Assembly (NCBI RefSeq): GCF_003334255.1
Contig: NZ_QOWU01000117.1
Direction: 5' to 3' (one strand)
Source of the DNA: Escherichia coli
GTDB taxonomy: Bacteria > Pseudomonadota > Gammaproteobacteria > Enterobacterales > Enterobacteriaceae
Length of the DNA stretch: 3,635 nt
Positions 1 to 3,000 of the stretch are shown here, in pieces. Made by a program: the position numbers. Within the stretch, counting starts at the first letter, position 1; every line of letters starts with the position of its first letter.

Positions 1-3000
1 GTGGTCAGGGCATCATCGCCGTCAGACCTCGCAGGAAAACTGACGCAAAAACTGAAGGAAGGCTGGCAACCCTATGGTAGTCCGATTATCTCAAACGCGG
101 GTTATGGTGCTGAATTTATCCAGGCTATAGTCGCTGAAGGGGATATGACCTCTCCGGTAGTTTCACCGGGGGGAGATGGTACCCGGACTGTTGTTGTTGA
201 ACCAGAATATTACTTTGTCATTGCGCTGGCCGGACAGTCAAACGGCATGGCGTATGGTGAAGGCCTGCCGCTGCCGGAGACATATGACCGTCCGGACCCG
301 CGTATTAAACAGCTGGCGCGTCGCAGTACGGTGACACCGGGTGGTGCGGCCTGTGCATATAACGACATCATTCCGGCGGACCACTGCCTGCATGATGTGC
401 AGGATTTGAGCCGTTTTTCTCATCCGAAAGCCAGCGCAGAGCAGTATGGGTGTGTCGGACAGGGATTGCATATTGCCAAAAAGCTGTTGCCCTTTATGCC
501 GGAAAATGCGGGTATTTTGTTAGTGCCGTGCTGTCGTGGTGGCTCTGCGTTTACAGCCGGTGCTGACGGAACGTTCAGTGAAAGTTCAGGAGCGTCGGAT
601 AAATCTGAACGATGGGGCGTTGATAAGCCGTTGTATAAAGACCTGCTGACACGCACTCAGGCCGCGCTGAAGGCAAACCCCAAAAACATACTGCTTTGTG
701 TTGTCTGGATGCAGGGCGAGTTTGATTTAAAACAGGGAGCGTACGCCAGTCAGCCCGCCATGTTTGATGCCATGGTGGAAAAATACCGTTCTGACCTGGC
801 GGGAGTATCCGGTCAGTGCGCTGGTGCTTCTCCTTCTCTGGTGCCCTGGATTTGTGGTGACACGACGTACTACTGGAAGGAGACGTATTCAGCGCAATAC
901 GATGCCGTTTATGGCGCATACAAAACCAAAGCCGGTAAAAATATCTTCTTTGTGCCGTTTATGATGGATGACAATGGTCAGAAAGTCGGGACCAATGAAC
1001 CGTCAGAAGACCCGGATATTCCGGCTATCGGGTATTATGGTTCCGGTGGACGAACGGATGCGAAGAGCTGGACAACATCCGATCGTAAAACCCACTTTGG
1101 TTCATGGGCGCGTCGCGGAATTATTTCCGACCGTCTGGCAACAGCCATTCTTCTGCATGTGGGCAGAGTGGCAGATTTTGTTTCCGGGAAAGTGACAAAA
1201 GCCGCGGTTTCTTCAGGCGGAGGCGTATCGCAACCAGCACAGGAGAGTGGCGATACTCAGCCTGAAGCCGTTGTCCCGACAAAGATACAGTCAGTGCTGG
1301 CTTATGATGTGAATGCGGAAAATGCCGCTCTGGCTTCGCAGGGCTGGACGCTGACAGATGTCAAAAACACGCTGGTCAGTGACAGTGGTTCAGGTAAAAA
1401 AGCCCTTCGTCTTGAAAAACCAGAAAATGGTCTTGCACAGAAAAAGACCTGGAAAGTATCGCACGCAATTGATGCCGGTAAGGGGAAGGAGCTGTTCGAT
1501 AACGGCGGTGAAATCACGCTGCGCTTTAAAATCCCCGATGATGTATCTCTCAATGCTTCTGCAAATCAATATTCTGCGGGTATTTACTGGCGCGGTAGTG
1601 GATGGCCGGGAGCGGAATCAGAGGAGGGTTATATTGCGGCCTTCTATCTGCAGACTGATAAAACAAACATCAATGTGATGTATCATGCAAACACCACATC
1701 ACAGCGGCTTGGTAGTTATGGTCCGTTCGATCACGACTGGCACACGCTGACTTTCCGCTTCCCGGGTGGTGGCTCGCTGAACGTCACGCCGGTGCTTGAT
1801 AATGCAGCAGGAAAACCGTTTACGCTGACCAGATGGACGAATGCAGCCTTTGAGGCCAACGCGCTGGCAATTACGGATATTACCGGAAATGCGGCAACTT
1901 ACCCTGTGCTGATTGAAAGTCTTACTGTTGGTGTGAATGCCGTAGCAGCATAACAGACGAAAAAAAACCGCCAGCAACAGGAATGGAGACTGGCGGAGGT
2001 AATCCCAATGGAGAATCTAACGAAAGGATGCTTTCGACATCAATCATTTCTAAATGAAAACAGTTCTCATTGTCAACAGTAACGGTAATAAACCATGACA
2101 TTCATCAACCAGTTAATGCTGTACTTCTGTACGGTGGTCTGTGTGTTGTATCTTCTTTCAGGTGGATACAGGGCAGTACGCGACTTCTGGCGCAGACAGA
2201 TTGACAAAAGGGCCGCTGAGAAAATCAGCGCCACTCAGTCAGCCGGAGCAAAAACAGAAGCCCCACTCATTCCGGAACAACCTTCTTAATAACCCCTTTC
2301 AACGAGAAAATCCTATGTCAGAAATAAAATCGCTGGTCACTGCTGAGGCAGTGAAGGAAGTCCTGCGCTCTGAAGAAGTCCGGAGCGCACTGAAACAGCA
2401 ACTTCGGCAGAACCTTGAGGCGCGTCTTGATGCAGAAGTGGATTCAATTCTGGATGAATTGCTTGGTGCACAGCCGGAACCATCCCCGGAACTGCTTCCG
2501 GAACCACAGGCGGAAGATGTCACCACGGAAAATGGTGATATTCAGCCGGAGTCACCGGTGACGGATATGACAGACACACAACCCGAACCGGGCACAATGC
2601 TGTAACGGCGGGGCAGGGCCATCAGTAAAACACTGATGGCCTTTTTTATTTCCGGTAGCACAGGTCTGTCGGGGCGGGGATATGTATCAGATGGAAAAAA
2701 TATCAACGGGCATAGCCTATGGTACTTCTGCGGGCAGTGCGGGTTACTGGTTTCTACAGTGGTTGGATCAGGTTACTCCGTCACAGTGGGCTGCTATCGG
2801 GGTTTTGGGGAGCCTGTGTCTGGGGTTCCTGACATACCTGACGAATCTGTATTTCAAAATTAAAGAGGACCGTCGCAAGGCTGCCCGGGGAGAGTGATTA
2901 GGTGACTCAGAAACTCCACTATGGTTTATCGGTAGCCGTTCTGGCGCTGATTGCGGCAGGTGCTTCTGCGCCTGAAATCATCGACCAGTTTCTTGACGAA

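Follow-up and report, generated by a model that had tools for sequence, protein, structure and literature searches.

In phage lambda, Luk and Szybalski are said to have reported in 1983 that tR', where the 6S RNA ends, is followed by further tandem terminators between the late promoter pR' and the holin gene S, and RNA polymerase modified by the antiterminator Q passes through these signals. Holin and endolysin are lethal when they are expressed out of turn. In lambdoid phages, including those that encode Shiga toxin (Stx phages), pR' is constitutively active in lysogens and its transcription is stopped at tR', and Q-modified polymerase resists the terminators downstream (PMC7547250). The terminated product in Stx phages is a small RNA (sRNA), StxS, and tR' of these phages has been mapped by Term-seq in strain Sakai (Sy et al., 2020, PMC7547250; the Sakai Term-seq data set is GSE143631, cited in PMC7547250), and Stx tR' is an example of a late-operon terminator that works in lysogens and is overridden by Q (PMC7547250). 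In enteropathogenic Escherichia coli (EPEC) the Hfq-dependent sRNAs PasA and PasC, encoded between sialate esterase and holin genes, also end at intrinsic terminators (PMC8550237; bioRxiv 10.64898/2026.05.13.724894). Here we analyse a stretch of 3,635 nucleotides (nt) of the E. coli contig NZ_QOWU01000117.1 (the window, by which we mean this whole stretch), which is the late region of a lambdoid prophage with all of the listed genes on the + strand. Our subject is a hairpin that starts at position 2617, between a group of accessory genes and the lysis genes S and R. We propose, with a probability of roughly 65%, that this hairpin is a back-up intrinsic terminator within the Q-dependent late operon, placed at the left edge of a phage-21-type lysis module.

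The stem consists of 10 perfect Watson-Crick pairs, six of them G-C, with a 5-nt loop, and T6-A-T3 follows directly on its 3' side, so that the 10-bp perfect stem, 5-nt loop and 6-T tract claimed in the earlier note are all found in the sequence (2617-2647). The additional pairs A2615-T2643 and G2616-T2642 can lengthen the stem to 12 pairs, which is the form given by a consensus scan of the window, where the hairpin ranks among the strongest terminator-like sites. RNA folding of 2612-2650 yielded -19.4 kcal/mol; its dinucleotide shuffles gave -6.6 ± 2.3 kcal/mol (z -5.6), none of 200 folding equally well, and when the longer stretch 2590-2720 was folded the hairpin persisted as an independent module. 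We counted as comparable any perfect 10-bp stem with a loop of 3-8 nt and 6 or more T among the next 8 bases. When the whole window was shuffled 5000 times with dinucleotides preserved, no more than 3 of the shuffles contained such a hairpin on either strand. The hairpin is no chance feature. The signal is also one-directional, as the complement strand reads CTGCCCC beyond the stem and has no T-tract there. These properties support the view that the element bears every sequence hallmark of a + strand intrinsic (Rho-independent) terminator, and it very probably functions as one; RNA 3' ends would be expected within the U-tract, at about 2646-2650. Its position between the accessory genes and the S-R cassette, also put forward in the earlier note, holds as well: the hairpin begins 12 nt downstream of the stop codon (TAA, 2603-2605) of an open reading frame (ORF) of the DUF826 family and is separated by 34 nt from the start codon (ATG, 2682) of a pinholin gene. 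GC content varies between 0.45 and 0.53 over 1950-2700, without a compositional step at the hairpin.

We compared 153 loci that encode the holin type of the window, taken from IMG/VR and reference genomes. In 147 of them a homologous hairpin, with 10-12 pairs, no more than one mismatch and a T-rich run behind it, ends 46-55 nt before the codon of holin Met4. It is kept in at least four upstream contexts: it follows DUF826 in the window and in phage 933W, lies about 85 nt after nanS-p in locus L110, where the small ORFs are missing, stands behind unrelated small ORFs in locus L116, and is present in prophage PP2 of EPEC E2348/69, which has no DUF826 and in which the hairpin reads GCCGTCAGTG-GGTGA-CACTGGCGGC, then T6GT5. 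When the window was compared by BLAST with L110 and L116, homology extended from 2614, 3 nt 5' of the stem, through S to 2884. As homology to the window starts at 2614 in both of these contexts, the hairpin forms the left boundary of the lysis module rather than the end of the upstream genes. In phage mEp460 (L166, 1752 onward) homology begins at 2637, within the 3' arm and T-tract (TGGCCTTTTTATTTCC), which suggests that recombination breakpoints can fall inside the terminator itself; the 5' arm of mEp460 is different and lies directly after a DNA methylase gene. Judged from these alignments, the phage-21-type lysis cassette has the hairpin as its left edge in many mosaic contexts, which is a modestly new point; that the hairpin accompanies the holin gene regardless of the genes that precede it lends indirect support to an insulating role. 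The lysis module is present in 1133 of 5426 complete E. coli genomes, and those that have it carry it at a median of 2 places and at most 7.

The linkage also speaks to an alternative that we consider unlikely, namely that the hairpin is the plain 3' terminator of the upstream accessory unit (nanS-p, small ORF and DUF826), which arrived together with these genes, merely sets the 3' end of their mRNA and has no special relation to lysis. Its close spacing behind the DUF826 stop codon is indeed the classic position of a gene's own terminator, and morons often bring a terminator of their own according to reviews (PMC8065619). However, the homologous hairpin is also found where DUF826 is absent (E2348/69 PP2, L110 and L116), the homology that begins just 5' of the stem and continues into S recurs in two independent contexts, and the upstream ORFs, for which neither a promoter nor a compositional shift was detected, do not resemble a self-contained moron.

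The holin-proximal hairpin occurs in 33 distinct 70-nt versions. In an alignment of 21 distinct cores the stem columns are nearly invariant and the loop columns unconserved (AAAAC, AAACA, AAAGA, AGTTA, GAATTAA, GGGTGAC and others), and standard pairs occupy 90.5% of the cells compared to 22-63% when the 3' partners are slid. One stem pair, A-U, is replaced by G-C in 7 versions, with G-U intermediates, and several other pairs vary through G·U. The resulting covariation score of 0.228 is not reached in any of 500 shuffles (0.173 ± 0.013); we regard this covariation as modest, and as supportive of the predicted fold.

Conservation of the fold would also be compatible with a role at the level of the RNA, which seems to us quite improbable and in which the hairpin would either form a protective or Hfq-binding 3' end that gives rise to an sRNA derived from a 3' untranslated region (UTR), or serve as a 5'-UTR element for the stability or translation of S-R. 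A stem-loop with U-tract is the standard Hfq-binding module, the locus type is rich in Hfq-bound sRNAs (PMC4104026; PMC8550237), and a type of locus represented six times in IMG/VR (L111, 1421-1461) retains a stable, re-paired hairpin (GGGGCU.GUCGGU / GCUGAUGCCCC, -18.3 kcal/mol) despite a decayed U-tract. Against this, no conserved seed is apparent, since the sequence 5' of the stem is not shared among contexts and no part varies more than the loop. The stem also ends 29 nt before the Shine-Dalgarno region of the holin gene and folds independently of it; an attenuator or alternative structure, or an sdi-like effect on the choice of the holin start, was rejected on these same observations. Searches with Rfam gave no covariance-model match up to E = 1 at 2617-2651, and AgvB, AsxR, Esr41 and STnc100 had no match anywhere in the window. 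The part covered of the list of Sakai Hfq sites obtained by cross-linking and analysis of cDNA (Tree 2014, Table S2) gives no sRNA at the homologous site, but this list excludes sites within 100 bp of coding regions and so has no bearing on the hairpin. Finally, in the EPEC tables from RIL-seq (ligation of interacting RNAs, then sequencing), the sole + strand entry in the spacer between PasA and the holin gene of E2348/69 is 743494-743512, off the hairpin. The hairpin is not the terminator of PasA or PasC either: these sRNAs (743499-743415 and 1290909-1290832 of NC_011601, minus strand, flanked by + strand genes; Pearl Mizrahi et al., Table S6) lie immediately behind the esterase gene, on the opposite strand and convergent with it, which corresponds to about 2040-1960 (-) in the window, 0.6 kb away from a hairpin that lies on the gene strand.

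More telling than the covariation is the strand asymmetry, which argues for a hairpin in the + strand RNA and against a DNA palindrome: 96.2% of the core cells pair on + strand RNA compared to 79.5% on the complement, 35 cells being G·U, and 6-8 T occur within the 9 bases 3' of the stem in 21 of 21 distinct versions. A palindromic protein site or recombination-promoting linker that resembles a terminator only incidentally is therefore highly improbable, because a symmetric DNA site would need neither the G·U pairs, which form in + strand RNA only, nor a T-rich run confined to one side in every version, even if the hairpin does sit at mosaic breakpoints (2614 for L110 and L116; 2637, inside the hairpin, for mEp460).

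The window itself does not contain Q. The closest sequenced phage, PhiR5_2, is 96.6% identical to it over 1051 bp and 100% identical over 2560-2720; at a distance of 4 kb upstream of the hairpin, it encodes on the same strand a Q-like antiterminator (phrog_753, E 3e-68). The order in PhiR5_2 is Q-like gene, three terminator-like hairpins, nanS-p, two small ORFs, the hairpin, S, R and a terminator after R, and PhiR5_2 has 23 terminator-like sites in total compared to 8 ± 3 in shuffles. For the three near-repeat hairpins between the Q-like gene and nanS-p, the likely identities are tR' and terminators belonging to small RNAs or ORFs nearby. The order in 933W and Sakai Sp5 is Q, transfer RNA (tRNA) genes, stx2AB, nanS-p, DUF826, the homologous hairpin and S, and the hairpin is thus located downstream of Q and on the same strand in all three phages. 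In Sakai Sp5 an IS629 element (L170 4504-5813, annotated as an IS1203/IS3-family repeat region) overlaps the 3' end of the annotated nanS-p and lies upstream of the small ORFs and of the holin-proximal terminator. The sole terminator annotated in the GenBank record of 933W is one upstream of stx, and a simple terminator scan misses the allele of the reference Stx2a phages (933W and Sakai Sp5). We found no paper that names or tests a terminator upstream of S in Stx phages, and likewise nothing specific on DUF826/L0106.

From the Q biology of lambda, phage 82 and phage 21 we infer how the back-up terminator would operate, including termination itself, its efficiency, the read-through by Q-modified polymerase and the source of the transcription that is blocked. 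In a lysogen, polymerase unmodified by Q would come to the hairpin from upstream, having either started at the constitutive late promoter and leaked past tR' or started at a promoter of an accessory gene such as tRNA, stx or nanS-p. Once folded into the hairpin of 10-12 bp, the nascent RNA would come off in the U-tract, with 34 nt still to go to the holin start codon, such that S, which we propose to be the first gene shielded by the predicted terminator, and R would be kept silent and the accessory genes upstream would still be expressible. After induction, Q would be loaded onto polymerase at pR' and confer resistance to hairpin-dependent termination, and the late transcript might then pass the hairpin as well as the further terminator after R.

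Stx-type prophages carry several kb of cargo expressible in the lysogen between the late promoter and the lysis genes, and a terminator at the edge of the lysis module would explain how low-level transcription of this cargo is possible without killing the host. The hairpin also offers a concrete mutable site for gauging what share leakage through tR' might have in spontaneous lysis and toxin release. It is textbook knowledge that terminators before the lysis genes are overridden by Q, and the gain here would lie in annotation and in an experimental handle rather than in concept. It is interesting to speculate, although we hold this extension to be rather doubtful, that the hairpin is a portable insulator which defines the phage-21-type lysis cassette and travels with it, and that differences in strength among its alleles tune spontaneous lysis and toxin release. 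Cargo between pR' and S (stx, nanS-p, tRNAs and small ORFs) could then accumulate and be expressed in lysogens without lysis, and the strong allele of the window and the weakened one of 933W and Sakai could differ in lysis and toxin release; the terminated 3' end may in addition represent a stable, Hfq-bound RNA.

Several observations weigh against the proposed back-up role. A simple consensus scan, in which weak promoters may escape notice, revealed no + strand sigma-70-like promoter in the window or in the interval between Q and S of PhiR5_2. In the earlier note, the transcription to be stopped was ascribed, by way of example, to promoters that serve nanS-p or the small ORFs, and this part of its reading is not borne out by the window; what stands of it is the terminator, by its sequence hallmarks, its conserved structure and its location downstream of Q in relatives. 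Leakage through tR' or promoters farther upstream would be the more likely source. The allele of 933W (L001 4636-4670) and Sakai Sp5 has a T·C mismatch in the stem, only T5 and a folding energy of -15.2 instead of -19.4 kcal/mol, so the description "near-ideal" fits the allele of the window but not this one, and natural alleles of the hairpin differ in predicted strength. In the L111 type the U-tract has decayed (TCCTGTTG; as DNA, the T-tract has become TCCTGTTGTTG), which implies that strong termination is not indispensable. Four phages have a holin of the phage-21-like MKSM type; some terminator-like hairpin is present 50-150 nt upstream of S in three of these, whereas 2H10 shows no obvious one. 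The covariation, moreover, rests largely on one doubly changed pair, and it is not decisive because the sequences are closely related.

The features of the window and of the relatives mentioned above are collected in Table 1.

Table 1. Location of the hairpin, its neighbouring genes and related elements (positions in the window unless a locus or accession is given).
Feature	Position	Strand	Remarks
nanS-p-type SASA-family sialate O-acetylesterase gene (phrog_143)	1-1953	+	5' end possibly past the window edge
64-aa ORF (phrog_494, function not known)	2095-2289	+	hydrophobic N-terminal segment
96-aa ORF (DUF826, phrog_311)	2315-2605	+	
Terminator hairpin, 5' arm	2617-2626	+	GGCCATCAGT; outer pairs possible from A2615 and G2616
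Terminator hairpin, loop	2627-2631	+	AAAAC; most variable part among relatives
Terminator hairpin, 3' arm	2632-2641	+	ACTGATGGCC
T-rich tract, predicted release site	2642-2651	+	TTTTTTATTT; T6 2642-2647, A2648, T3 2649-2651
Shine-Dalgarno region	2671-2680	+	purine-rich, GGGGCGGGGA; precedes holin start
Holin S, class II, phage-21 type (pinholin)	2682-2897	+	dual start: Met1 2682, Met4 2691
Endolysin R (lysozyme)	2902-3435	+	hydrophobic N-terminal segment typical of signal-anchor-release (SAR) endolysins
Second strong terminator-like hairpin, same operon	3526-3568	+	14 pairs, -21.6 kcal/mol
Three near-repeat terminator-like hairpins of PhiR5_2, between Q-like gene and nanS-p	L002 2335-2354, 2548-2567, 2818-2837	+	AGCCCCTCTCCGGAGGGGCT, AGGCTCGCTCCGGCGGGCCT, each followed by T-runs
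Sakai Sp5 allele of the hairpin	L170 6724-6754 = NC_002695.2 1,272,723-1,272,753 (+; U-tract 1,272,749-1,272,753; numbers about 142 lower in version.1)		

The holin begins with MYQMEK, giving the dual start typical of phage-21-type pinholins. Upstream, the DUF826 ORF has a different C-terminus in the L111 type. The second hairpin of the window is located within the lysis region, 90 nt 3' of the endolysin stop codon and ahead of a + strand ORF that starts at 3592; it has an A-run on its 5' side and a T-rich run on its 3' side and may thus work in both directions. The sole Rfam match in the window, to the rimP leader (3502-3590, minus strand; 27.5 bits compared to a gathering threshold of 47, E 0.15), corresponds to this second hairpin and is probably due to chance.

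An sRNA-like module convergent with nanS-p was observed on the minus strand at 2076-1960 and is also present in 933W. It comprises a TTGACA hexamer (2076-2071), a TAGAAA about 18 nt on and a predicted RNA of about 80 nt, with a hairpin CCGCCAG (1996-1990)...CTGGCGG (1974-1968) and T8 (1967-1960) situated 7 nt from the nanS-p stop codon. The module has the position and orientation of PasA and PasC; similarity is weak (55-60% in a forced alignment), and it is a candidate member of their family. Within nanS-p, AGTCAGTGCTGGCT at 1289-1302 (+) agrees in all of its 14 nt with the PasA terminator of E2348/69 in the region of the 3' arm (E about 9e-4 in the window), and is hence the complement of the PasA seed and 5' arm as reported, GCCAGCAC; this stretch could be a target site, a trace of the origin of the sRNA, or a coincidence. 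In prophage PP2 of E2348/69 (L083 2455-2700) two tandem PasA-type terminators follow the esterase gene on the minus strand, at about L083 2616 and 2465, and match the reported PasA species, a major one of 85 nt and a minor one of 236 nt.

Among the known systems, PasA and PasC share with the 2617 hairpin the intergenic neighbourhood and the intrinsic terminator, but are encoded on the opposite strand. Stx tR' belongs to the same type of operon and is the same kind of signal; it differs in being located immediately downstream of pR' and in giving rise to a defined Hfq-binding sRNA, whereas no RNA product has been reported for the 2617 site. The terminators of the lambda late operon are likewise intrinsic and are carried by the late transcript in the stretch from Q/pR' to the holin gene. 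About 120 nt upstream of S, lambda has a hairpin GGCAGGAGG...CCTCCTGCC with GTTTTG behind it. The lambda terminators are not homologous in sequence to the hairpin described here, which is only 34 nt away from the holin start, and with several kb of accessory genes between tR' and this hairpin it would constitute a last barrier rather than the primary target of Q. Morons, in the sense of Hendrix and colleagues, are reportedly units of promoter, gene and terminator. The terminators of lambdoid morons (PMC8065619) resemble the 2617 element in that a hairpin with U-tract directly follows an accessory ORF in the late region. The ORFs upstream of the hairpin, in contrast, are without a promoter (by a simple scan that may pass over weak ones) or a shift in composition, and, unlike the terminator of a moron, the hairpin goes along with the holin gene rather than with the accessory genes.

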